Shown here piece after piece: positions 22,550 through 59,713 of a DNA stretch of 64,000 bases. The notes below the pieces were generated by a model. That model saw nothing but the letters and a program-made list of their open reading frames with translations. It did no database searches and was not told the DNA's origin. A program made the translations under genes and the position numbers. The stretch is from a virus. Taxonomy: Duplodnaviria > Caudoviricetes. How positions within the stretch are numbered: the stretch's first letter is position 1; each line of letters begins with the position of its first letter. The stretch lies in IMG/VR virus record IMGVR_UViG_3300034061_006011; one strand, given 5' to 3'.

Positions 22550-24007
22550 TCATACTCTGAAATTTGCAATATTTAATCGGGCATAGAACTTTGCGCCTTC
22601 CCTTAATAACTTTTTTCCGTATCGAACAAGCAAACCACGTCTTGGGCAGAATGATTCTGGGTCAAGAACGACTGGGGTCTGGGTGAGTGGAACGTATGGG
22701 CAGTAGAAGTAACCGCTGTCCATGTAGCTGTCGCCCTTATAACCCATGAGCAACTGGTTGCTTGGGAAGAGTGGATCTTTGTATAGACGATAACGGTTAG
22801 CGACCGTACCGACATACTGAACGCCGAGTGAGCTTGTGAAGGTCTCAGAAGGTGCAGGAGCGAAACCAGCAGTTGCTGTTTCGAAGATTGAAGCAACTTC
22901 AGGTGAAGTCACGATGAAGTTTGCGCCGCCACGGAGGGTCTTCCTGTGGATCACGTTAGAAACTTCGATGATCTTAACATAAAGGGCTTCGTACTTTTCC
23001 TTGATGGTCTGACCGATTGCAGTTGAGAAGTCCCAAGCTGCGACAGTACCAGCGTTATTACGGAGGTCACCAAGAACTTCTCGGTCGATTTCGAGGTTGA
23101 TTTCCTGTGCAAGAACAGCGGTCAACTCAGCTTCAGCATCAAGATTGTGCTGACTACGGAGATCTTGCTGTGCTTCATAGGACCATACAGCCTTGAGCTT
23201 ACGGGTCTTAGCAACGATATCTTCTGATTCAATAACGAGGTTGATTTCAGGAAGATCCTGATTGCACTCCATATTGTACTCATAAGAGACTGTGCAGTTG
23301 TTTGAACCGGGTGCATTATCCCAAGTGAGTGTGAATTCGCCAGTGGTAAGATCGATGCTACCAGTTGTTGCTCTGTTAGCAGGTGAACCAATTGCGGTAA
23401 AGGTGAAGGTGCCGTTTGAAGAGACAACGAATGTCTGAACAGCGGTTGAACCATCATAAACAGTACCAGTAATGGTGCCAGCAAGGATTGGAGTGTGTTC
23501 AAGTGGGCTGAATACGCTAGTGGTGTCTGCGCCTGCATCAGTGCTGGTTGCTTCGTTGTTTACGAACTGTGAAGAGTAGTAAACGTCGAGGTTAGCAGTA
23601 CCATCAGCAAGCTGCTGGAGTGAATTAATATCATCTCCGGGGAAACCACCGTTGTTGCTAGCTCCACGAACGCTACCCTTGTTAGAGGAATAACGGAAAC
23701 GGAGATAGTACACCAAACCGGTTGGTCCGAGTAGTGGCTGAACGCTTACAATCTTATTAGCGATCAACTGTGGGTAAATTCTGCGGACGAGAGGAATTGA
23801 AATCCTCTTGAACTGTGCGACATCTGCGGTGTCGGTTGAAACTTCGTTAAATAGCTTTTCTCTTTCGAGCATTAGGCGTTGGTTCTCAAGAAGCACTGCG
23901 GTTGCAGCACGGGTATGAGTATCTTCGATACCCCTGAGAAGACCAGTTTTTGCCCAACGGCTCTCTAGTTCTTTAGCTTCGTTCAAATAAGTTGAATTGA
24001 GACTCAT
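22550..24007 (-). CDS. gp23: T4 gp23-like major capsid protein
   Basis: TAVLLENQ, VSVQPLLGPTG, TRKLKAVWS.EAQQDL, EINLEIDRE, YCPYVPL, RYG. Confidence 0.97.
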   Translation of the reverse strand: MSLNSTYLNEAKELESRWAKTGLLRGIEDTHTRAATAVLLENQRLMLEREKLFNEVSTDTADVAQFKRISIPLVRRIYPQLIANKIVSVQPLLGPTGLVYYLRFRYSSNKGSVRGASNNGGFPGDDINSLQQLADGTANLDVYYSSQFVNNEATSTDAGADTTSVFSPLEHTPILAGTITGTVYDGSTAVQTFVVSSNGTFTFTAIGSPANRATTGSIDLTTGEFTLTWDNAPGSNNCTVSYEYNMECNQDLPEINLVIESEDIVAKTRKLKAVWSYEAQQDLRSQHNLDAEAELTAVLAQEINLEIDREVLGDLRNNAGTVAAWDFSTAIGQTIKEKYEALYVKIIEVSNVIHRKTLRGGANFIVTSPEVASIFETATAGFAPAPSETFTSSLGVQYVGTVANRYRLYKDPLFPSNQLLMGYKGDSYMDSGYFYCPYVPLTQTPVVLDPESFCPRRGLLVRYGKKLLREGAKFYARLNIANFRV

Positions 24008-24917: not shown

Positions 24918-25562
24918 TCACAGTCTCCCTATTATGTTACTGGTTTTATTCTTAATTAGCCCGCCTAAACAAGCTATTACTGCGTCCTTATTAACACTAT
25001 GTATGCGTCTGCTTTCATTTTTTGCAGAAAAATTATCATAATTATAATTTTCTTTAGTAACTTTCTTCTGAAATGCCTGATAAGTAGACGGATCAGCAAC
25101 AGCATCGAATGTGATGAGCTTGTATGATTCTGTAATCATCAAGACACCTTTTTCATTTGTTGTACCGTTTCCGACACCTCTTGAAGAAATGCCGACACGC
25201 ACACCGTCATTAATAAGTGCTTTCAGTATTTTTCCATGTGGTGTATTTAGGATTTCGCCTTCACCCATTAGGGTTTTGCCTTCCCACCACAATTTTGTTA
25301 CAACATGAGAAGCTTTTTCAAAGTGAATAATTGAATCAGAAGGGTGATCCAATTCGCCAACCAAGCCTCTTGCGTTAACACAGTCCATCAGCTCCTGAAC
25401 ATTCTTGTCTAGGACGCTGAAACCATATGATCTATTGTTTTTATTGACTTCATCAGCCTGCTGGAATTTACCACGAAATTTTGTGAGTCCGCCAATTGCG
25501 GACTCATTTAAATTCATGACTATACCGCCGCTATTGCAAGAATCGACTAGCAGCATATTCAA
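24918..25562 (-). CDS. gp21: Prohead protease (gp21-like)
   Basis: KNNRSY, GELDHP, SHVVT, GISSRGVG, TFDAVADPS. Confidence 0.95.
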   Translation of the reverse strand: MNMLLVDSCNSGGIVMNLNESAIGGLTKFRGKFQQADEVNKNNRSYGFSVLDKNVQELMDCVNARGLVGELDHPSDSIIHFEKASHVVTKLWWEGKTLMGEGEILNTPHGKILKALINDGVRVGISSRGVGNGTTNEKGVLMITESYKLITFDAVADPSTYQAFQKKVTKENYNYDNFSAKNESRRIHSVNKDAVIACLGGLIKNKTSNIIGRL

Positions 25563-41167: not shown

Positions 41168-41593
41168 TTATCCAAAATATCCTTTATTTTTCAAGTTATC
41201 AATGATAATATCCAGATTTGGGACAAGATTTAATTTTTTGCAATCTTCATAATCACACCATTCGTATTTATCATGTTCAAAATTCAATCTTATTTTTGGA
41301 TTATCTACAACTGTTGCATGGACAAAATTAACATAATCATCTTCAACTCTTGTTTGAACCTTTTTTAATTCATATGGAGGAATATCAAGTCCTATTTCTT
41401 CTATCATTTCTCTTGATGCAGCATCTTCTGGAGTTTCTCCCTCTTCAACACCACCACCAGTAAGACAATAATATAAAGGCATCCATGGAGCAGTACTGCT
41501 TCTTCTTAACAATAATAATTTATTATTGTTAAAAACCGCTACTGTCGCAGACTTGGGCAATCTTCCTTTTAAAAAATCCTGAAAACTTTTCAT
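41168..41593 (-). CDS. Nudix hydrolase with CTS-like start
   Basis: Perfect Nudix box GGVEEGETPEDAASREMIEEIGL; starts MKSFQDFL. Confidence 0.92.
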   Translation of the reverse strand: MKSFQDFLKGRLPKSATVAVFNNNKLLLLRRSSTAPWMPLYYCLTGGGVEEGETPEDAASREMIEEIGLDIPPYELKKVQTRVEDDYVNFVHATVVDNPKIRLNFEHDKYEWCDYEDCKKLNLVPNLDIIIDNLKNKGYFG

Positions 41594-46532: not shown

Positions 46533-47348
46533 TTAATCCTCTATTACTTTTCCTCGACAATATTCCAATGATTTTTTTATTTCTTTTTCTATTTTGGTAA
46601 AAGCAATATTAACTGTTTTCTCAACAATATTTTCAGTATGGTTAATAGGAGAATTTTCATTACAAAACTTAGTCAATTTTTTGAAATCAGGACGTTTTAA
46701 TTTACCACCACCATATAAATAAGATACAAAAATTTCATATGCCAATTCGTCGGCATCTTGTACAGTTTTATTTTCCACAGTTGATTTTGCAGATGCAAAA
46801 TTAAACAATAAAGGCAATATTTTGTTTGGTTTAAATTCTACTGAAGGAAATTCATTGTTGTCATAGAATTTATTCACTGTTGTAAAAGGTATTTTGCCAA
46901 ATGTCAGATGTGTAACTAAATTGAAAACAGCCATCTTAATTGTATCTTTAGAAGACGAATTTCCCATTTCAAACACTGCATGACCCATATTGTGCAAAAT
47001 CATCCAAGGAGTTAGTAAATCTCCTTGTGATGATTTCTTAAGAAAAACTATATCCTCTTTTGGAATTTTATCAAAAAAGTATTTTTGAATATCTATGTCA
47101 TCTCTGTTATATTCACCAAAGTATATATGAAAATTAAAGCCTTTGACTCTTGCCAATACTGTGTCTAAAACAGATATTATGCCACCACGAAGCTTGCTAC
47201 GACTACTAATAACAAGCGGTCTTTTATACATGCCAGAAATATATTCAGTATCTTTTTCATTAAGAGATGGCTTAAATTCATCTCCATGTGGCATCGTAAA
47301 GCCACCATGACTCGATAAAGCTTCCAAAAATTGATAAAAACTTTTCAT
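46533..47348 (-). CDS. CTS-tagged protein, zincin-like HxxxH; paralog of 58550..59713
   Basis: MKSFYQFLE; LTPWMILHNMGH; ends CRGKVIED. Confidence 0.7.
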   Translation of the reverse strand: MKSFYQFLEALSSHGGFTMPHGDEFKPSLNEKDTEYISGMYKRPLVISSRSKLRGGIISVLDTVLARVKGFNFHIYFGEYNRDDIDIQKYFFDKIPKEDIVFLKKSSQGDLLTPWMILHNMGHAVFEMGNSSSKDTIKMAVFNLVTHLTFGKIPFTTVNKFYDNNEFPSVEFKPNKILPLLFNFASAKSTVENKTVQDADELAYEIFVSYLYGGGKLKRPDFKKLTKFCNENSPINHTENIVEKTVNIAFTKIEKEIKKSLEYCRGKVIED

Positions 47349-48787: not shown

Positions 48788-49270
48788 ATGATCACCTTCA
48801 AACAATTTTTAGAAAATAAAGAAGACTTAGAACTACCACCAGAAATGGGAACCGCTCCAATACCAGATGGATGCGTAAGACTCTATCATCAAACAAATCC
48901 AGAAAATGTTCCATCAATTAAACAAAATGGCATAACTAAATCTTTGTCAACAGGAAAATCGCACCACGAACCATCTGTAATCTGGGCTGCAAGAAAACCA
49001 TTCTATAACATCAAATCAGACCTAGCTACTATCGAATTCTTCATCCCAGAAGAACAATTCTCACCACCAAGCTACGTCTTGGTAGACGTAATACCACCAG
49101 AACAAATTATAGGCATACACGAAAGATGGACCGACCTCGCAAGACACCTAATAAAAGATTACCCAGAACCAAATCAATCAAAAATAGACTTCTGGATGTC
49201 TATCGACGATAATTACAAAAAAGCTACCCAATTTTATGTCAACTATATGAAATCAATAGATAAATTGTAA
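48788..49270 (+). CDS. CTS-tagged ADP-ribosyltransferase-like (Tpt1/KptA-like) protein
   Basis: MITFKQFLE; LYHQT..NV.SIKQNGI; IPPEQI. Confidence 0.65.
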   Translation: MITFKQFLENKEDLELPPEMGTAPIPDGCVRLYHQTNPENVPSIKQNGITKSLSTGKSHHEPSVIWAARKPFYNIKSDLATIEFFIPEEQFSPPSYVLVDVIPPEQIIGIHERWTDLARHLIKDYPEPNQSKIDFWMSIDDNYKKATQFYVNYMKSIDKL

Positions 49271-49289
49271 ATATTATCATAAATACAAC

Positions 49290-50603
49290 ATGACCACTTT
49301 CAAACAATGGCTGTTAACCGAAGCAATAATTGACAAAGAAGAATTTATTAAAGAAATTAATTCTACAGAACATTCTTATTTACACTTACAACTGTCCCCT
49401 AATGGAAAAATATTAATTACAAGCCCTCATATTGAAACCAATATAATAAAAATTGGGAAAAAATATAAGTCAATCGAAGCAACAGGATCATTACAACCAT
49501 TATCTAAAAATTTTGCTAATGTAATTAACACAATTAAAAAAATATATCCTGAAATATTAAACTATGTCGTTTCCGAGACAGGAGTTGCAGGATTTAGAAA
49601 TCCTTCAACAAAACATAGAACAGTACAATATTGGCTTGACCAACAAAGAACAGAACCAAAAGTAAATCTACCAAAATATTTTTATCACGGCACCTCTACA
49701 AACTTATATAATATGTTCATCAAAGAACAAGGATTGGTCCCAAGACAAATATCTGGAAGTTCTGGATCTTATGGTGCATCATCAGTCAGAGCCTTATCAA
49801 GAGGAATGTTTAATTATCTTACAATTCATCCTGATTATGCTACAAGAGAAGCAGCTACACAAGCAGCAAAAAATCATGGCGGTCTTCCACTCATATTAAA
49901 AATAAATTCATATGCAATAGATCCAACAAGACTTTTTCCCGATGAAGACGCAAGAGCAGAAACTTGGGAAGAATCCATGCACAAGATAGGAACAGTTGCC
50001 TATAAAGGCATTATCCAAAACTCAAGCATCATGCCATATGAAATTAGCAAAGATATCAATAGATTAAAATGGTTGCCTTATGAAGAAACACCAACAATGA
50101 ATCATCCCACATACGAAAAATTAATTACAACAAAAGAACATAGAAACAAAGATTCCGTATTCTTTGCACTTTATGATAAAGAAATAATTGATAGAAAAGG
50201 TAGCTTACTCAAACCAATAACCAGCGAAGAATTTAACGAAATAATAAAGAATGCAAAATGGGCAACTAATGCATGGTTAATTTGTGAATCAATAAACGAA
50301 GGTATATTGGAAAAGACAAGAAATTCTGTTATCAGCAGAAGTAATTTCGATAAAGAAGCACAAAAAATTGTACTTGATTTGTATAAGCATGATATTTTTG
50401 ATGAATATCTGCAAATGAAAAGCGAATACATTAGAATATATGATTACGCAATACAAGTAATAATAAAATATGCTAAATACCTTGGCAAAAATTCATGGAA
50501 AGAAATAGATCAAAAATTAAGAACTGTTTACTCAAGAAACAATAGAGATCAAAATGACCACTTATATTCCACTGAAGCTAAAGAAATATTAGGAATTAAA
50601 TAG
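49290..50603 (+). CDS. CTS-tagged ADP-ribosyltransferase-like (Tpt1/KptA-like) protein
   Basis: MTTFKQWLLTE; FYHGTS..IKEQGLVP; YLT..A...A; PLILKI; AYKGII. Confidence 0.72.
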   Translation: MTTFKQWLLTEAIIDKEEFIKEINSTEHSYLHLQLSPNGKILITSPHIETNIIKIGKKYKSIEATGSLQPLSKNFANVINTIKKIYPEILNYVVSETGVAGFRNPSTKHRTVQYWLDQQRTEPKVNLPKYFYHGTSTNLYNMFIKEQGLVPRQISGSSGSYGASSVRALSRGMFNYLTIHPDYATREAATQAAKNHGGLPLILKINSYAIDPTRLFPDEDARAETWEESMHKIGTVAYKGIIQNSSIMPYEISKDINRLKWLPYEETPTMNHPTYEKLITTKEHRNKDSVFFALYDKEIIDRKGSLLKPITSEEFNEIIKNAKWATNAWLICESINEGILEKTRNSVISRSNFDKEAQKIVLDLYKHDIFDEYLQMKSEYIRIYDYAIQVIIKYAKYLGKNSWKEIDQKLRTVYSRNNRDQNDHLYSTEAKEILGIK

Positions 50604-50715
50604 AAAGATTACCCGCAACTCCCGAAGAAGCAAGTATGTGGAAACTCAAAACTCTTAACCACCCATTCCATTTCAAATTCATTTCAGAAAATCCACAAGT
50701 AATCATAAATAATAC

Positions 50716-51867
50716 ATGACTAATTTTAAACAATGGCTACTTACAGAAGAAATTGACCGTAATGGCAAAACGGCAATAGTTTATCATAGAACCGACGAAA
50801 TTGAAAATGCACTTTCAATACTCCAATATGGATCTAAATCCGATTTTGATAAAGACCATCCTATGTTATCCGATTTTGATAAAGACAATCAACCGGGGCA
50901 GATGTTCTTCGTCTTTGATCTTGAAAGCACTATGGGAAAGGCAGAAACTTACGGAAATGCTATAATAAAATTCAAAGTCACTGATCTTGATAAATATCTT
51001 GTATTCCATACAAATATGGCTAAAAGAATTCATGGAGAGAATTACAAATTAAGTGATCAACTTAGAGAATTCAAAATTTCACAAAAATTCACACAAAATT
51101 ATCTTGATGATATAGACGAAAAACTAGTCACAAATCAATATAACCACATCACTGACGTTTATTCTTTTTTAATTGAAAACGAATGGATAAAAAGTAAAAT
51201 AAAAGGCGTTATTTATTGGGGATATGATGATGGATATTGCTTGCTTAAATTCCGTCCAGTAAATGACGGAACAATTACTATGATCGGATATGCAACCGAC
51301 CCACACAAAAATTATGAAAAAGATGGGATAATAAAAAGCAAAAATAGAATGAAAGATTTAGAAAAATCTCAAAATTGGACAACATCAACAGATATAGCCA
51401 AATTAAAATCTATTGATAAAACCCCATACGGACAAAGAGAAAAATATATTAAAATAAAAGAAAAAAATCCAACTGTCTTGGAAATAATCAAAAAACTAAA
51501 ACTAGAGAAAAATATTGAAAAAGATGAATTATTAAAAATAATGAATTCTGTTAAAAATAAAAACGCATTTGCAAAAATAATTATACAAAATAAAAAAGAA
51601 TTAACAGTTGATGATATTTCATTGTTAATGAAATATTCAACAGACTCATGGGAAATTTGTTCATTTATACTTAAGAATAGACCAGAATTGTCTGATTTTA
51701 TTTCTAGAGCTATGTTTCCTAAAACCTACAGACCAATGGACACTCAAACCAGCAAGGTATGGTCTGATTATACATCAGATCCAGACAGAAGACCAATAGA
51801 CACTAAAACCGGCGAAAGACCAGAATTGTCTGATTTTATTTCTAGAGCTATGCGTTCCCGTAAATAA
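50716..51867 (+). CDS. CTS-tagged PARP/ART-like protein, paralog of 54638..55720, with internal duplications
   Basis: MTNFKQWLLTE; VYHRT; YGNAIIKFKVTDLDKYLVFH. Confidence 0.68.
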   Translation: MTNFKQWLLTEEIDRNGKTAIVYHRTDEIENALSILQYGSKSDFDKDHPMLSDFDKDNQPGQMFFVFDLESTMGKAETYGNAIIKFKVTDLDKYLVFHTNMAKRIHGENYKLSDQLREFKISQKFTQNYLDDIDEKLVTNQYNHITDVYSFLIENEWIKSKIKGVIYWGYDDGYCLLKFRPVNDGTITMIGYATDPHKNYEKDGIIKSKNRMKDLEKSQNWTTSTDIAKLKSIDKTPYGQREKYIKIKEKNPTVLEIIKKLKLEKNIEKDELLKIMNSVKNKNAFAKIIIQNKKELTVDDISLLMKYSTDSWEICSFILKNRPELSDFISRAMFPKTYRPMDTQTSKVWSDYTSDPDRRPIDTKTGERPELSDFISRAMRSRK

Positions 51868-51910
51868 AATTTATTTAACAATTAATTAAATATACACCAA
51901 TAAATACAAC

Positions 51911-52561
51911 ATGATCAACTTTTATCAATTCCTTGAATTTGCTAGAGAAATCATCCCAATAGGTACTGTTACTGACCCAAATGTCAGAAAATCGCTGGCA
52001 GGAAGAAGAATTAATTCCGCTGATGCGAAAAAATATTTGGATCAAGGTTTCGTTTATGTCTATAGATTTGAAGGATTCGCACCACGTCTCAGGAAGTATT
52101 CAAGAGGAGTTTGGTATTTTATAGGAGATGAAAATGATACTAAACTTGATCTGGGCAAATGCTTATTAGCATGGAATAAAGTACATGCACTTCACCTATT
52201 AGGATTTCCCAACAATTATATATTGTTTTATATTAATCCTGCAAATTTTTTACGACTTGCTGCTGACCAAAATTTAAACAATAGATATATAAATCAAGTA
52301 ATAAAATCACACTTTAATGAAAATGGACCTACCAAAGATTTCAATTCTTATGATAAATTAGATTTTCCCATGACTGGTATCGCAAAAAGTCAGGGATATG
52401 ATACTATCATGTTAGTTGCAGAAGGTGATTCCAAATCAGCAGAATTAATCGATCTTAGAACAGAAGTAACTCCTAAATCATTAGAAGATTATTTAAAAGA
52501 AATAGATGTAGATGAAGTTATGAAAGATTTAAAGAAAAAAAAGGGGAAAAAATCTACATGA
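51911..52561 (+). CDS. CTS-tagged protein, possibly ART-like
   Basis: MINFYQFLE; VYRFEG, GVWYF, AKSQGYDTI. Confidence 0.55.
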   Translation: MINFYQFLEFAREIIPIGTVTDPNVRKSLAGRRINSADAKKYLDQGFVYVYRFEGFAPRLRKYSRGVWYFIGDENDTKLDLGKCLLAWNKVHALHLLGFPNNYILFYINPANFLRLAADQNLNNRYINQVIKSHFNENGPTKDFNSYDKLDFPMTGIAKSQGYDTIMLVAEGDSKSAELIDLRTEVTPKSLEDYLKEIDVDEVMKDLKKKKGKKST

Positions 52562-52617
52562 TCACTTTCAAATAATCACCGTAACAACTCCAGTTAATTC
52601 TAATAAAATTAATATAA

Positions 52618-53301
52618 TTATTCTGAATCTGAGGAATAAGTGCCTATACCATAGTACTCTTTAATCTTATCAATCGCATCATTGTAAAGAATTGTTGCAT
52701 AAGAAGGACGAATATTCAATTCTGCCGCAATATCTTTATTCATTACATCCTCAGACCTGCGAGTCAAAATAATCTTCTGCCTTGGACTCAAATTGGGAAC
52801 CCTTAACAAATCCTCTAATCCCATCTTTTCAGACGATGGATCATCAGCAAATGAACTAGGCTCATGAATAGTACCAACTGTGTTAAAACTCACATTTCCT
52901 TTCTCACTCTTCCAATTATTACGCCTTATAATGTCCACAACAGATGCTCTAATCATGTTTGTAATCAAACCACCAATTAAATTGTAATTCAATTTTCTAT
53001 TTCTTATTTTTTTTTCAACCGTATTGTGAACCCTCAGCAAAGTCCTGTTGATAATGTCCTCTTCATCAACAATGTTTCTTATAACCATTCTACGCTGATA
53101 AGGCAAAAGACTATTCCTAAAACAATTTCTTATATTATTGTCCAATCTATCATAAAACTTTTCCTTCTTACCCAAATTATCAGAATACCATAAAAATAAA
53201 TTCTCCAAATTCCTCTTACACTTAAAAATTATCTCGGCTGCTTCTGGATCTACAGATTCATGAAAATCTCTATTAATAACATATTCAAAAAATGTTTTCA
53301 T
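52618..53301 (-). CDS. CTS-tagged sigma70/ECF-like sigma factor
   Basis: Region 2-like EEDIINRTLLRV..LITNMIRASVVDIIRR; region 4 LSPRQKII..NKDIAAELNI..A..LYNDAIDKIK. Confidence 0.78.
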   Translation of the reverse strand: MKTFFEYVINRDFHESVDPEAAEIIFKCKRNLENLFLWYSDNLGKKEKFYDRLDNNIRNCFRNSLLPYQRRMVIRNIVDEEDIINRTLLRVHNTVEKKIRNRKLNYNLIGGLITNMIRASVVDIIRRNNWKSEKGNVSFNTVGTIHEPSSFADDPSSEKMGLEDLLRVPNLSPRQKIILTRRSEDVMNKDIAAELNIRPSYATILYNDAIDKIKEYYGIGTYSSDSE

Positions 53302-53381
53302 AATAAACTATATATTCCACTAAACAAAAAAATCACACCACATCTCTATAAATTAAATCCACAAATAAGCATAAATACTAC

Positions 53382-53762
53382 ATGATCACTTTCAAACAAT
53401 TCCTAGAATCCTACAGAATGGAAGACCAAACCTTCTCCGATAACAACGGCACCTACTCCGTACCACAAATAGTCAACTACGCAACAGAAAACAAAACAAT
53501 AAAAGAAATGCCATTAGAACCCCTACTACATAACCTAGAACCATCCCCACACGAAGAAGGTGATGAACTACCCGGTCATCCAGAATTTATCAAAAGAACT
53601 GAACTAACTGACCTCAAATACCCAATCATTATCGTCAAATACCCAGACGGTCTCTTTATCGCTGACGGTGTCCATAGACTAGCAAAAGCTCACTCCCTAA
53701 ACCAACAAACTATCAAAGCTTATGTCCTAGACCAAAATGAATTAGAACAATTCAAAATGTAA
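53382..53762 (+). CDS. CTS-tagged ParB/Srx-like domain protein
   Basis: MITFKQFLE; DLKYPII..IADGVHRLAKA. Confidence 0.8.
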   Translation: MITFKQFLESYRMEDQTFSDNNGTYSVPQIVNYATENKTIKEMPLEPLLHNLEPSPHEEGDELPGHPEFIKRTELTDLKYPIIIVKYPDGLFIADGVHRLAKAHSLNQQTIKAYVLDQNELEQFKM

Positions 53763-53768
53763 CATTCT

Positions 53769-54563
53769 TCAAGACTCAATCCAATCCTGTCCATTATGAA
53801 CTAAAATTTTAGTCACAGGTAAAGAACTTTCTCCTGTGTACTTCAAAGCCATAGGATTCTTTCCATAATTATTCTGGAAAAACCAAGATTCCAGTTTTTT
53901 ATGCAATTCTGGATTCCGATCCTGATGTCCATAATAAAAAGGAGCTATATTAGATGCTGCTCCTGCACTGTAATAAGGGTTATCATTCAACAAAGGATCA
54001 CGAACACTTCCTATTCTACCGGGAAATTTACCATACAAACTTCTGGCTACAGGATTCTTCTTGATAGTCGAAAATGGAATTGGCTCGGCATCAATACCAG
54101 TCAACTTTTCTCCAACTTCATCCTTTGACAAATATTCTTTTGTCTTGTCTGTTAAATTAACATCTCCCAACTTGTTCAGCTTTCCAACTCTTTTAGAAGC
54201 ATAAGTAAGAATGTCCTTCGCATGATTCTCAATGTCCAAATCCCATTCACCAAAATCAATATTTGGAACATCTATTACAACAACTATAGGATTACCCTCT
54301 AAAGAACCCTTCAAACCATACAATTCTCTGTTCATACGAGCCAAAGCATGAGTTTTTGCGCTTTCATCCGATGTCCAAAGAAATAAACCACCTCCCTGAC
54401 CATGACCGTATCCCGAAGACCTAGCACCATCCCTCTTAAATGAATTCAATACCTCATCGTTCTTTCCAGAACTAGTTCCATGATAAAACCTGAAAGGACC
54501 ATTAATAACAATATCATGTGAATAACCTTCATCATGTCGAAGCCACTCTTTGAAATTATCCAT
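53769..54563 (-). CDS. CTS-tagged PARP/ART-like protein
   Basis: MDNFKEWL; FYHGTS; GQGGGLFLWTS..A..HA; PIVVVI. Confidence 0.65.
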   Translation of the reverse strand: MDNFKEWLRHDEGYSHDIVINGPFRFYHGTSSGKNDEVLNSFKRDGARSSGYGHGQGGGLFLWTSDESAKTHALARMNRELYGLKGSLEGNPIVVVIDVPNIDFGEWDLDIENHAKDILTYASKRVGKLNKLGDVNLTDKTKEYLSKDEVGEKLTGIDAEPIPFSTIKKNPVARSLYGKFPGRIGSVRDPLLNDNPYYSAGAASNIAPFYYGHQDRNPELHKKLESWFFQNNYGKNPMALKYTGESSLPVTKILVHNGQDWIES

Positions 54564-54590
54564 AATGTTTATATATAAAAAATCCAGAAA

Positions 54591-54632
54591 AATATCAACC
54601 CTCTACACAAATTAAATCAACATACATAAATA
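54591..54632 (+). repeat. 42-bp intergenic late-promoter repeat, copy 1
   Basis: AATATCAACCCTCTACACAAATTAAATCAACATACATAAATA, identical at 55719..55760. Confidence 0.92.
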
Positions 54633-54637
54633 TAACC

Positions 54638-55720
54638 ATGAACTTTAAACAATGGCTCATCAACGAAGAAATTTATCCCAATAACACCGCTACGGTTTAT
54701 CATAGGACTGAACACGCTAGCAATATTGAAAGAATTCTACAATCTGGATACAAAACCGGTGGTGGTCAAATGTATGGTAATGGTCTTTACACTACCATCT
54801 CACTAGAAAGCCAATTTAAAAGTTATATGAGCATATATGGTAATTATGTTATCAAGTTTCATGTCACCGATCTTGATAAATATCTTGTATTCCACCCCAA
54901 TATGGCTAAAAAAATTCATGGTCAAAATTACAAAATCAGTGATCAATTGAAAAATTTTAATTTAGCAGGAAGCTTTACAGAAGATAAACTTAGACAATAC
55001 GATGAAGCACAAGAAAAAACCGGAACTGTTAATGGTAATAATGCAGTTAAATTTTGTAGAGAAAATATTGGGATACTGCATACAATAAAAGGCATTATTT
55101 ATTATGGAACAAATGATGGCTATTGTTTAGTAAAATATAAACCAGTGAACGATAATACAATAAAAATGCTTGGTTACGCAGAAGCACAAGTTGAAGATAT
55201 CAATAAAATGAACGAACTGTACGCAAATAAAGGATGGAATACATCAACAGATAAAGCTAACATCAAAGATATACAAGATTTAGAACCAGATCAAAGAGAA
55301 AAATACGCAACAATTACTCCAAATAATTTGAAATCTGTATCAGAAATTGTAACCCTTATAAAGGATGAAAAATCTAATTTTGAAGAAATATTCGAATACA
55401 TAAAGAGAAATAAATTAATAGATCAAAAATACAAAAATACTATTGTAAGACTTATATTAAAATATAAAAAAGAAATATCCGTGGAACAATTGCTAGAACT
55501 AGTAAAATACAAAAAAGAAATCTCCATAGAAGAATTAATTGAACTAATAAATTACAAAAAAGAAATCTCCATTAAACAATTACTAGAACTAATGAAATAT
55601 ACAAACATGTCCACATCAGAAAGAGAAAAATTTATTGCAACTTACTTACCAGAAAAAGTAAATTCAATTAAACAATATGTTAACGATCCATCAAACTTTA
55701 CTTCAACACATGATGATTAA
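54638..55720 (+). CDS. CTS-tagged PARP/ART-like protein with C-terminal 15-aa tandem repeats
   Basis: MNFKQWLINE; VYHRT; YGNGLYTT; KYKKEIS.EQLLEL-like x3. Confidence 0.75.
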   Translation: MNFKQWLINEEIYPNNTATVYHRTEHASNIERILQSGYKTGGGQMYGNGLYTTISLESQFKSYMSIYGNYVIKFHVTDLDKYLVFHPNMAKKIHGQNYKISDQLKNFNLAGSFTEDKLRQYDEAQEKTGTVNGNNAVKFCRENIGILHTIKGIIYYGTNDGYCLVKYKPVNDNTIKMLGYAEAQVEDINKMNELYANKGWNTSTDKANIKDIQDLEPDQREKYATITPNNLKSVSEIVTLIKDEKSNFEEIFEYIKRNKLIDQKYKNTIVRLILKYKKEISVEQLLELVKYKKEISIEELIELINYKKEISIKQLLELMKYTNMSTSEREKFIATYLPEKVNSIKQYVNDPSNFTSTHDD

Positions 55721-55766: not shown

Positions 55767-56048
55767 ATGAAACTTAAAGATAAAGCTACCATCAAAACAA
55801 ATTTTCCAGAAGCTGACTTTTGGATCGTTCGCAGAGGATCAGAATCAGACGTTGGTAAACCTACCAAAAAATTTAGCGAATATCACATAGGAATTAAAGT
55901 TACATCTGATGACCTATTACCAGATTATCTCTACTACGCAATGACATATCTCTACAACCAAGGATACTATAAACCATTAGCCACAGGAATGTCAAGCTTG
56001 GTAAACATACAAGTTAAAGATGTTAAAAATATTAAAATGGGCGAATAA
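55767..56048 (+). CDS. Small protein resembling a type I R-M specificity (TRD) half-domain
   Basis: LLPDYLYYAM..L...G..S.VNI...DVKNI pattern. Confidence 0.5.
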   Translation: MKLKDKATIKTNFPEADFWIVRRGSESDVGKPTKKFSEYHIGIKVTSDDLLPDYLYYAMTYLYNQGYYKPLATGMSSLVNIQVKDVKNIKMGE

Positions 56049-56721: not shown

Positions 56722-56755
56722 TCTACACAAATTAAATCAACATACATAAATACAC
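56722..56755 (+). repeat. Late-promoter repeat, copy 4, with no downstream ATG (empty)
   Basis: TCTACACAAATTAAATCAACATACATAAATACAC followed by CTGAG. Confidence 0.88.
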
Positions 56756-56773
56756 CTGAGCAAATCATAACAC

Positions 56774-58549: not shown

Positions 58550-59713
58550 TCAACTGCCCCTTCTATCCATAATAACTTCACCCCTGCAACCATCTATAAT
58601 TGAATGGTAAGAGGCTGCAATTTCATTAAATCTACTGTCCAAACCATCTAGCAAACTATCAAAATTTTCCGGTTCCCTACCTGCAAATAATTTTTGCAAC
58701 TTTACTTTGTAATTAGGATCAACTATCGGCAACCTTCCTCCTTGAGTTAACCAAAATACAAATATCTCCATTTGTAACTCCCCAGAATTTAAAGCCTGTT
58801 GTAAATCCATTTTCGATTTTATAAATTGACCCGATCTGGCTCCAGATATTATCTTAAACGCTTCCTTTATACTCCAAATACTAGGAAACAAAATTGTTAG
58901 AAAATCTATAGTTATATTCCCTATTCTTTTTTGTATTTCTTCATCAGTATACAAAGCTTCTTTATTACCATCTTTCAACACATCAATCCAACCTTGATAA
59001 AACTGTGGATACATCGGACTAACCAAAAAGTCTTTCAAAAGTTCCTTAACTAAATTTTCAGCTCTAACACAATCCTCCTGAATTTTATTCATGTATGTGT
59101 TGCCATAATCTGCTGTACGAGCAAGTGACCCTCTATCAAAAATACCATGTGCAAATGTGTGAAGAATCAACCAAGGAGTCAAAGGATCAGCAGCAGTACT
59201 CGTCTTCATGTAAACAATATCATTCTCACTTATGTTCATTCCGTCACGACCATAAAAATAATTTTTTAATTGATTGTAGTTGTCTTTAGTTAACTCTTTA
59301 CTTATGGTAAATCCTGACTTAATATCATCTTTAGGATAACCAAAATAGAAATGTATGTTCACAATACCAAGCTTCTCTAACTTCTTTTCAAGACCAGACA
59401 TTATCAATTTAAAATTTCTAGGATTCTCTATAATTTTCTTGTCACCACCTTTAAAATTGTGATCCCAACCAGAACTACCATATCGACTACCAACATCATC
59501 AGAATCAATATCCTTGTCTGGAAAATGCTTTTTATACTCATCACCATAATTTGAACCAAATTGAGAAGACCAACCATAATCATTAGACGGCGGCTGATTT
59601 TGCAAACCCTGTGAAAGATTATGCTGAACCGGATAACCTCCAACTGACCCTAAAACTTCATCAATTGTAAATTTATTGTCATTAATCAAAAACCACTCTT
59701 TAAATCTTTTCAT
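58550..59713 (-). CDS. CTS-tagged protein, zincin-like HxxxH; paralog of 46533..47348
   Basis: MKRFKEWF; LTPWLILHTFAH; ends CRGEVIMD. Confidence 0.72.
   Translation of the reverse strand: MKRFKEWFLINDNKFTIDEVLGSVGGYPVQHNLSQGLQNQPPSNDYGWSSQFGSNYGDEYKKHFPDKDIDSDDVGSRYGSSGWDHNFKGGDKKIIENPRNFKLIMSGLEKKLEKLGIVNIHFYFGYPKDDIKSGFTISKELTKDNYNQLKNYFYGRDGMNISENDIVYMKTSTAADPLTPWLILHTFAHGIFDRGSLARTADYGNTYMNKIQEDCVRAENLVKELLKDFLVSPMYPQFYQGWIDVLKDGNKEALYTDEEIQKRIGNITIDFLTILFPSIWSIKEAFKIISGARSGQFIKSKMDLQQALNSGELQMEIFVFWLTQGGRLPIVDPNYKVKLQKLFAGREPENFDSLLDGLDSRFNEIAASYHSIIDGCRGEVIMDRRGS

Follow-up and report, generated by a model that had tools for sequence, protein, structure and literature searches.

Tagged genes with ADP-ribosyltransferase-type domains clustered in an uncultured giant phage

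The cluster and its motifs

The window analysed here is a stretch of 64,000 nucleotides (nt) from the IMG/VR record IMGVR_UViG_3300034061_006011 (Duplodnaviria; Caudoviricetes), and the region under study, positions 48788-55720, encodes a cluster of proteins that begin with a common short N-terminal tag, described below. Five of them, named by the lower coordinate of their genes (48788, 49290, 50716, 53769, and 54638), are supported as possessing the ADP-ribosyltransferase (ART) fold, whose core is a split beta-sheet that binds NAD, or a domain homologous to it. The basis is AlphaFold modelling followed by Foldseek and VIA comparisons for 54638 and 48788, paralogy for 50716, and profiles for 49290 and 53769. 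Judged from their sequences, these proteins form at least three separate ART-fold families that have accumulated side by side, five genes in 7 kb. The stretch probably belongs to an island of small and mostly tagged genes, each with a promoter of its own, that covers ~46.5-59.7 kb of the window; this view is part of the overall explanation weighed below. By blastn, the region has no DNA match in 50,697 GenBank phage records.

All five open reading frames (ORFs) exist as listed in an earlier reading of the DNA (the sequence-only reading), and each carries the Y-H-x-T motif ascribed to it there: RLYHQT in 48788 (residue 33), FYHGT in 49290 (residue 132), VYHRT in 50716 (residue 23), FYHGT in 53769 (residue 27; minus strand), and VYHRT in 54638 (residue 21). 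Within the ORFs of at least 100 residues in the window (18,162 residues), this motif is observed seven times, against 0.87 expected from composition, and five of the seven are the named genes. The other two ORFs, 8003 and 16675 (minus strand), lie outside the island and have no similarity to any ART profile by hhalign. Relatives were gathered in alignments A1 (54638/50716 family), A2 (53769), A3 and A5 (48788; A3 is smaller, A5 has 28 sequences), and A4 (a 40-sequence domain alignment for 49290). The motif is invariant among these relatives, as H22-R23-T24 in A1, FYHGTS in A2, R31-L32-Y33-H34-Q35 in A3 and A5, and H-G-T in A4, and the first-strand His itself is invariant in all four of A1, A2, A4, and A5. 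A second motif, G.GLY or YLT, had been claimed for most of the genes. It is present in 54638 (GNGLYTT), 49290 (NYLT, with VYLT in its family), and 53769 (GGGLFLWT), but 48788 has VIWA (IYA in distant relatives), and 50716 has MFFVF, with neither the Tyr nor the GxG.

Models, profiles, and family membership

Gene 54638 (54638-55720, plus strand) encodes a tagged protein (MNFKQWLINEE...) of 360 residues. Its ART-fold domain covers residues ~15-198 (nt 54680-55231), supplemented by a helical insert of ~60 residues and a C-terminal extension with 3.2 copies of a 45-nt (15-residue) repeat, KKEIS(V/I)EQLLEL (55458-55605). The first 215 residues have 16 relatives with 45-94% identity, and in A1 the invariant H22-R23-T24 is followed by an invariant GLYTT and then by an invariant D160, directly ahead of the strand 161-167. 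The AlphaFold2 model built with A1 has a predicted local distance difference test (pLDDT) score of 79.4. The best 50 rows returned by Foldseek from the PDB are all ART-fold, with MbcT at the top (E 4.9e-3, probability 0.97), and they include diphtheria toxin, AcrIF11 (rank 4), pertussis-like toxins, ParT, PARP14/15, and DarT1. An exhaustive VIA comparison finds MbcT (Z 8.6, 141 residues, root-mean-square deviation (rmsd) 4.0), ParT (Z 7.0), a RES toxin (Z 6.4), a diphtheria-like toxin (Z 6.2), cholix and exotoxin A (Z 6.0), and PARP1/2 (Z 5.8); the RES-type proteins VPA0770 and NatT are also near. Clusters of the AlphaFold database (AFDB) matched by the model comprise toxin C-termini, DUF3990, ART-PolyVal-like, RES, and PARP entries (E 1e-4 to 1e-2), and the ESM Atlas places the protein near ART-PolyVal clusters. 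A PDB profile search with A1 found nothing.

The model also aligns with PDB 9k3a_B, a 1071-residue pre-ejectosome protein of cyanophage A4 (Z 6.0 over 121 residues). The paper on that structure mentions no ART domain, and the match is not used as evidence here.

Gene 50716 (50716-51867, plus strand) encodes a tagged protein of 383 residues, in which an ART-fold domain is assigned to residues ~17-215 (nt 50764-51360) by paralogy to 54638 (37% identity over 378 residues by BLASTP, E 1e-66). The protein keeps the His-Arg-Thr triplet and a DDGY sequence; its MFFVF in place of GxGLYTT is common to two close relatives in A1 (P0019 and P0020). The C-terminus is encoded by DNA with an exact 36-nt repeat (RPELSDFISRAM, repeat family D8), the copies of which lie 138 nt apart at 51679-51852.

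The second family comprises 49290 and 53769. Gene 49290 (49290-50603, plus strand) encodes a tagged protein (MTTFKQWLLTE...) of 437 residues with an ART-type domain at residues ~125-255 (nt 49662-50054) displaying the motifs YHGTS...GLxPR, NYLT, and PDEDA. A phmmer search of 1.8 billion representatives returns 203 relatives at E<=1e-3, most of which match residues ~125-255 alone; the pattern conserved in A4 is YHGTS..I...GLxPR, VYLT, PDEDS, and VAYxG. Compared singly with Pfam, 18 of the 40 members of A4 match PTS_2-RNA (Tpt1/KptA) and nine match PARP (27 of 40 in all), one matches Diphtheria_C and one Arr-ms, all of them under the cut-offs. Tpt1 structures are the best matches of the A4 profile in the PDB (E 8e-4 to 4e-3), followed by DarT1 and PARP10. 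The protein itself matches phrog_13493 (E 8e-9), a group of unknown function.

Gene 53769 (53769-54563, minus strand) encodes a shorter tagged protein (MDNFKEWL...) of 264 residues, with an ART-type domain at residues ~22-136 (nt 54156-54500) and the motifs FYHGTS, GQGGGLFLWT, and LDIEN. Aligned by hhalign, A2 and A4 reach a probability of 93.7% (E 1.9e-7) over 98 columns, which span FYHGTS, GLFLWT, and PIVVVIDVP as far as LDIEN, which stands opposite PDEDS. The single sequence of 53769 reaches 94.1% against A4, and A1 against A2 gives 66% (E 5e-5). In addition, the ESM Atlas places 53769 near ART-PolyVal and AcrIF11 clusters. PDB searches with the single sequence and with the A2 profile found nothing. 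On the strength of these alignments, the domain of 53769 is considered homologous to that of 49290.

Gene 48788 (48788-49270, plus strand) stands apart from the other two families. It encodes a tagged protein (MITFKQFLE...) of 160 residues, in which a compact ART core of only ~85 residues (~27-113, nt 48866-49126) is followed by a C-terminal helical bundle. Residues R31, L32, Y33, H34, Q35, A67, T81, E83, H111, and W114 are invariant in A5, residue 66 is always aromatic, and E83 lies in strand 80-87 of the model. This AlphaFold2 model, built with the 28 sequences of A5, has a pLDDT of 86.7. Its top 18 Foldseek matches in the PDB are all Tpt1/KptA structures (E 1.9e-3 to 5e-2, probability 0.85-1.00), below which come PARP10, DarT1, PARP13/15, and Rhs ART toxins. 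VIA aligns model residues 27-111 with residues 91-180 of TkoKptA (Z 7.5, 76 residues, rmsd 3.5), and finds TreX (Z 7.2) and mouse Tpt1 (Z 6.7) as well. Among AFDB clusters, DUF4433 (the DarT family) ranks first (E 4.1e-4). Profile searches of the PDB point to E. coli DarT1, which is the best match of A3 (E 7e-4, three collinear stretches) and the sole match of A5 (E 4e-3, two collinear stretches). Against A4, 48788 reaches 62% by hhalign over 29 columns only. For 48788 as for 54638, the Foldseek comparison that the sequence-only reading had proposed thus returns structures of the ART superfamily.

Gene 51911 (51911-52561, plus strand; 216 residues, tagged) had been set aside as a weaker ART candidate, and it is indeed one: it lacks Y-H-x-T and shows VYVYRFEG...GVWYFIG instead. 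The ESM Atlas places it near an ART-PolyVal cluster (feature score 0.92, 178 shared features), and its Atlas model (pLDDT 0.43) has a template modelling (TM) score of 0.45 to an ART-PolyVal cluster. It has no match in Pfam, PHROG, NCBIfam, or PADLOC, no similarity to A1, A2, A4, or A5 by hhalign, and no relative in IMG/VR. As an ART, 51911 is a lead, suggested by a language model. Other tagged ORFs (46533, 47431, 56100, 56774, 57949, 58550, and others) show no ART similarity by hhalign against the same four alignments.

Scans of the six proteins (the five and 51911) with Pfam at E<=1, PHROG, NCBIfam, and PADLOC give no meaningful match apart from that of 49290 to phrog_13493. The nearest Pfam families were considered individually. 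For Tpt1/KptA (PF01885), no window protein matches at E<=1, family members match at E 7e-4 or weaker, and only the C-terminal lobe of Tpt1 is covered. For DarT (PF14487/DUF4433), none of the 28 members of A5 matches the Pfam model, and the DarT1 alignment is discontinuous, with large DarT segments left unmatched; the resemblance of 48788 to DarT is therefore one of fold and motif only. For PARP (PF00644), no window protein is matched, and the nine A4 members mentioned above are sub-threshold (best E 1.6e-4). For ART-PolyVal (PF18760), none of the six proteins matches at E<=1, while the same model detects the viral sequences L019 (4.7e-32) and L021 (2.2e-18). By those families' own models, the proteins belong to none of Tpt1, DarT, PARP, or ART-PolyVal, and their families are unclassified. 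Furthermore, when the ART domains of 49290, 48788, and 54638 were compared with GenBank phages by tblastn, no match was obtained at 1e-3.

The proteins had been described as His-type, PARP/Tpt1-like ARTs. A published scheme divides ARTs into three clades, H-H-h, H-Y-[EDQ], and R-S-E (PMC9503650). The description is apt for 48788, 49290, and 53769 and, with respect to the invariant first-strand His, for every family. As read from their sequences, these three would fit H-Y-[ED]: besides the His, they have an aromatic second-motif residue and an acidic residue that is invariant. This also goes for 48788, even though no solved structure is nearer to it than the NAD lobe of Tpt1, an H-H-h enzyme. 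Candidate acidic residues, chosen from the sequences, are E83 in 48788, the invariant D-E-D of 49290, D108, D110, or E112 in 53769, and D160 in 54638. In contrast, 54638 and 50716 may be of either the His or the Arg type, because an invariant Arg follows the His in their family and their nearest structures are the Arg-type RES/ParT enzymes.

The sequence-only reading had also taken the cluster for an expansion by paralogy, which does not hold. All-against-all BLASTP pairs 50716 with 54638 and, beyond the ART-type genes, 46533 with 58550, and profiles pair 49290 with 53769. Members of different families are found together in other phages too: in L001, a relative of 48788 directly precedes two relatives of 54638, and in L005 a relative of 48788 adjoins one of 49290.

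The tag, its promoter-like motif, and the genes around the cluster

Nearly every gene of the island begins with a tag of 9-12 residues of the form M-x-x-F-K-Q/E-W/F-L-x-E. In its strict form, M-x(1,2)-F-x-[QED]-[FWY]-[LIVM], it is found at 16 of 70 ORF starts (ORFs of at least 100 residues), versus two of 397 internal Met positions, and the tagged genes of the window number about 20. In relatives from other phages, including those with 45-59% identity, M1, F3, K4, W6, L7, and E10 are invariant (A1). The codons used are varied and synonymous (TTC/TTT, CTG/CTA/CTT/TTA). In phage T4, residues 4 and 7 of the capsid-targeting sequence (CTS) ensure targeting, and residues 8 and 10 direct processing after a Glu (PMC9026906). 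The island tag has the corresponding features, being aromatic at positions 4 and 7 and aliphatic at 8, with a Glu at ~10, and stands on otherwise unrelated proteins. The window also encodes a prohead maturation protease (24918-25562, minus strand; phrog_207, E 1.6e-46), gp21-like, which is presumed to be the enzyme that would cut off the tags. The major capsid protein starts with MSLNSTYLNE, in which position 7 is aromatic and positions 8 and 10 are Leu and Glu, in agreement with the L-x-E processing pattern of the tags; its propeptide is apparently very short compared with that of T4 gp23.

The sequence [CT]ATAAATA ends 4-6 nt before the ATG of nine genes (47431, 48614, 48788, 49290, 50716, 53382, 54638, 55767, and 56100) and is found ahead of 53769, on the minus strand, as well. 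We take it to resemble the T4 late promoter TATAAATA. No Shine-Dalgarno sequence is found upstream of these island genes. Because the promoter-like motif lies this close to the ATG and no Shine-Dalgarno sequence accompanies it, individually promoted late transcripts that are almost leaderless are suggested. A longer cassette of 43-75 nt, TCTACACAAATTAAATCAACATACATAAATA, is repeated ahead of three genes (repeat families D1, D3, and D4), as exemplified by 54602-54637 (plus strand), which ends 5 nt before the ATG of 54638. A promoter-like copy of the cassette at 56722-56764 is followed by no gene, and an orphan tag start, ATGATCACTTTCAAATAA (M-I-T-F-K-stop), is found at the 3' end of 51911 (52558-52575). 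Both look like remnants of cassette turnover.

In other phages, the modules of the cluster are found within much larger proteins. The 48788-type module sits inside phage proteins of 900-3200 residues, some of which (L019 and L021) begin with ART-PolyVal, and in L009 it is fused to a portal protein. A 603-residue viral protein (L010:3391-5199) combines a NUDIX domain, a 48788-like module, and a C-terminal module like the product of ORF 55767-56048, with which it shares 48% identity over 92 residues; as a Rosetta-stone fusion, it would link three genes that are separate in the window. The 49290-type module is found in a 2220-residue protein together with ART-PolyVal, NUDIX, and DarA_C; further proteins with this module have 1700-3700 residues. 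Polyvalent proteins of this kind are held to be embedded in the virion and injected, and frequent packaging of ARTs and Nudix proteins has been predicted for myoviruses (PMC9503650).

The phage itself, which comes from freshwater samples, is an uncultured giant phage with a T4-type head. Its major capsid protein is of the gp23 type (22550-24007, minus strand; phrog_138, E 4e-87), and a portal and a large terminase are also encoded in the window. In a tblastn search, the capsid protein shares 76% identity with that of LR756511.1, an unannotated 595-kb "uncultured phage" record, followed at ~30% by jumbo Xanthomonas and Stenotrophomonas phages and by T4-like cyanophages. The 54638 protein is recorded on a 237.8-kb contig, and a 59%-identical relative on contigs of ~302-303 kb.

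Two further tagged genes lie inside the ART cluster, one for a sigma-factor-like protein (52618-53301, minus strand; phrog_1740, 1.4e-7; GerE/region 4 at 4e-4) and one for a ParB-like protein (53382-53762, plus strand; phrog_17560, 4e-12). Next to the cluster, ORF 55767-56048 (plus strand) encodes 93 residues without a tag that weakly resemble the target-recognition domain of HsdS, the specificity subunit of Type I restriction-modification systems (PADLOC Specificity_I, E 4e-4). The tagged Nudix hydrolase noted in the sequence-only reading is present beyond the region studied, at 41168-41593 (minus strand; 141 residues, MKSFQDFL..., phrog_1198 MutT/NUDIX, E 2.9e-20). A tagged, non-ART pair of paralogues, 46533-47348 and 58550-59713 (both on the minus strand; 25% identity over 340 residues, E 3e-15), flanks the island.

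Proposed delivery, alternatives, and known systems

The best overall explanation, which we hold to be probable, is that the tagged island genes, five of them ART-fold, encode enzymes delivered from the phage head. The genes would be transcribed late from TATAAATA-like promoters, and the tag would dock the proteins into the prohead scaffolding core, as the CTS does in T4. A gp21-like protease would then remove the tag after its Glu, and the mature enzymes would exit the head together with the DNA. Within minutes of the start of infection, they would transfer ADP-ribose from host NAD+ to proteins or nucleic acids of the host, such as components of defence or of transcription and translation, and the tagged Nudix could process ADP-ribose products. 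The island may thus be viewed as an "unbundled" polyvalent protein, the 49290/53769 and 48788 families being elsewhere modules of giant virion-delivered proteins.

Several points weigh against this explanation. No curated model of Pfam, NCBIfam, or PADLOC reaches its threshold for any of the proteins, and the sequence matches to Pfam and PDB entries are sub-threshold. The Foldseek E-values are modest (1e-4 to 5e-3), and VIA Z-scores of 7-8.6 fall in a range that the tool calls common; the case for the ART fold lies in uniform hit lists and not in any single strong score. For 49290 and 53769, the assignment comes from profiles and not from a predicted structure. The structures nearest to 54638 belong to NAD+ phosphorylases and NADases, not to transferases, and 50716, wanting the Tyr and the GxG, may be inactive. 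Packaging, cleavage, injection, timing of expression, catalysis, and targets are steps that we infer. As to injection, the evidence consists of the N-terminal tag and of the fusions in other phages, and the claim as put in the sequence-only reading exceeds it.

The neighbours of 54638 lead to a first alternative, in which the proteins have the ART fold but consume NAD+ (as a NADase, an NAD+ phosphorylase like RES/MbcT, or a processor of an NAD signal) and modify no macromolecule. The 54638 model is nearest to MbcT, an NAD+ phosphorylase (Z 8.6), to VPA0770, and to NatT, and an invariant Arg stands beside the His in the 54638/50716 family; moreover, Tpt1/KptA, to which 48788 is nearest, moves ADP-ribose to a phosphate and not to a protein side chain (PMC9503650). 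However, the proteins lack the R-E-S signature and do not match Pfam RES, whereas they keep a His, an aromatic residue, and an acidic residue, as in H-Y-[EDQ] transferases. Besides, an early wholesale depletion of NAD+ would hurt a phage that replicates for long, and in polyvalent proteins the modules adjoin domains directed at macromolecules. We regard this alternative as unlikely.

Some or all of the proteins might instead be catalytically dead and act as internal head proteins, or as stoichiometric inhibitors or decoys of host defence. T4 IPI*, for instance, inhibits GmrSD. The MFFVF shared by 50716 and its closest relatives in place of GxGLYTT and the want of a His motif in 51911 are in line with such a role, pseudo-PARP domains (TASOR, PARP13) are among the structural matches, and the similarly tagged internal proteins of T4 are non-enzymatic (PMC9026906). 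On the other hand, four of the five genes show an invariant His, aromatic residue, and acidic residue even among relatives with as little as 30-35% identity, which is typical of a selected active site. We consider this account quite unlikely.

It may also be argued that the shared N-terminus is the by-product of a DNA-level cassette for translation initiation or recombination, the proteins acting only inside the infected cell. The conserved upstream cassette does extend into the first codons (families D1, D4, and D6), and the orphan tag start (52558-52575) and promoter copy (56722-56764) suggest shuffling at the DNA level. Yet the tag is conserved as an amino-acid pattern while its codons vary, it is unchanged even in relatives from other phages whose identity is no higher than 45-59%, and it reproduces the functional positions of the T4 CTS. 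A by-product of this kind appears improbable, to much the same degree as dead folds. Finally, that 48788 and 49290 are intracellular, unpackaged RNA 2'-phosphotransferases of the Tpt1/KptA type serving tRNA repair is barely credible, even though Tpt1/KptA tops the Foldseek and VIA lists of 48788, is the commonest Pfam and PDB match of the 49290 family, and is known in jumbo phages (PMC9503650): only the NAD lobe is matched (chain residues ~90-180), the 27 residues ahead of the core of 48788 leave it without the RNA-binding lobe, the second motif has Tyr/Trp and not the His of the H-H-h clade, there is no match at the PF01885 cut-off, and a place in the virion is indicated by the tag and by the fusions to portal and polyvalent proteins.

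Within the preferred reading of head-delivered enzymes, a more specific proposal can be made, although it is doubtful. The phage would inject a cocktail of at least three unclassified ART families, each with a different class of targets; 48788 would be a minimal DarT/KptA-like enzyme that modifies nucleic acid, and the tagged cassettes would constitute a modular, recombination-driven alternative to polyvalent proteins.

To our knowledge, almost nothing is known experimentally on head-packaged ARTs beyond the Arg-type enzymes of T4. The locus offers five compact stand-alone ART-fold proteins of 160-437 residues for which there is no curated family model. Should they be active, the set of virion-delivered, NAD-using effectors would be wider, giant phages could assemble an injected arsenal from tagged cassettes, and small, tractable representatives would be at hand of domains that are otherwise buried in polyvalent proteins of 2,000-3,000 residues. 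The phage being uncultured, such work must begin with synthetic genes.

Phage T4 injects Alt and expresses ModA and ModB, Arg-type ARTs that modify RNA polymerase and ribosomal proteins. Head-delivered ARTs are already known from T4 Alt, and also from polyvalent proteins and a survey of 2022; within the reach of the searches made, no earlier description was found of five stand-alone ART-fold genes combined with a CTS-type tag. Like Alt and the internal proteins of T4, the proteins of the cluster start with a tag of ~10 residues that is aromatic at positions 4 and 7 and aliphatic at 8, with Glu at 9-11 (PMC9026906). Both phages also combine a gp23-type capsid and a head protease with an ART cargo gene in a variable, "hyperplastic" locus (PMC9026906), the status of cargo being deduced here from the tag. 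T4, however, packages a single ART (Alt), of the R-S-E clade, whereas the ART-fold genes here number five, all with a His in the first strand, and belong to at least three families.

Among the enzymes of known structure, the NAD-binding lobe of Tpt1/KptA (PF01885) is the best structural match of 48788, and the pattern "LYHGT...I...GL.P" is common to it and the 49290 family. The differences are that the N-terminal RNA lobe is absent, that the second motif has Tyr/Trp and not His, and that an invariant acidic residue is present. With DarT (PF14487/DUF4433; E. coli DarT1, PDB 8baq), 48788 has in common the first motif xLYHxTxxxNxxSIxxxG, but it has no counterpart of DarT1 residues ~44-89 and 114-154 and forms no toxin-antitoxin pair. 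The RES/ParT toxins (MbcT 6fkg, ParT 6d0h) and AcrIF11 (6kyf) are the best structural neighbours of the 54638 model, from which 54638 differs by its low identity (9-16%) and by having neither the R-E-S signature nor an antitoxin partner. Of these, AcrIF11 is an ART encoded by phages and is reported to put a defence complex out of action (PMC12421852).

The closest parallel in domain content is provided by the ART modules of polyvalent proteins (Iyer et al. 2017, PMC5512222; Iyer et al. 2022, PMC9503650; PF18760). Relatives of 48788 and of the 49290 domain are found in proteins of 900-3700 residues, where their companions are ART-PolyVal, NUDIX, DarA_C, and portal domains. In the cluster described here, in contrast, the domains are not strung behind a MuF or portal anchor, and are encoded by separate small genes, each with its own tag and its own promoter-like motif.

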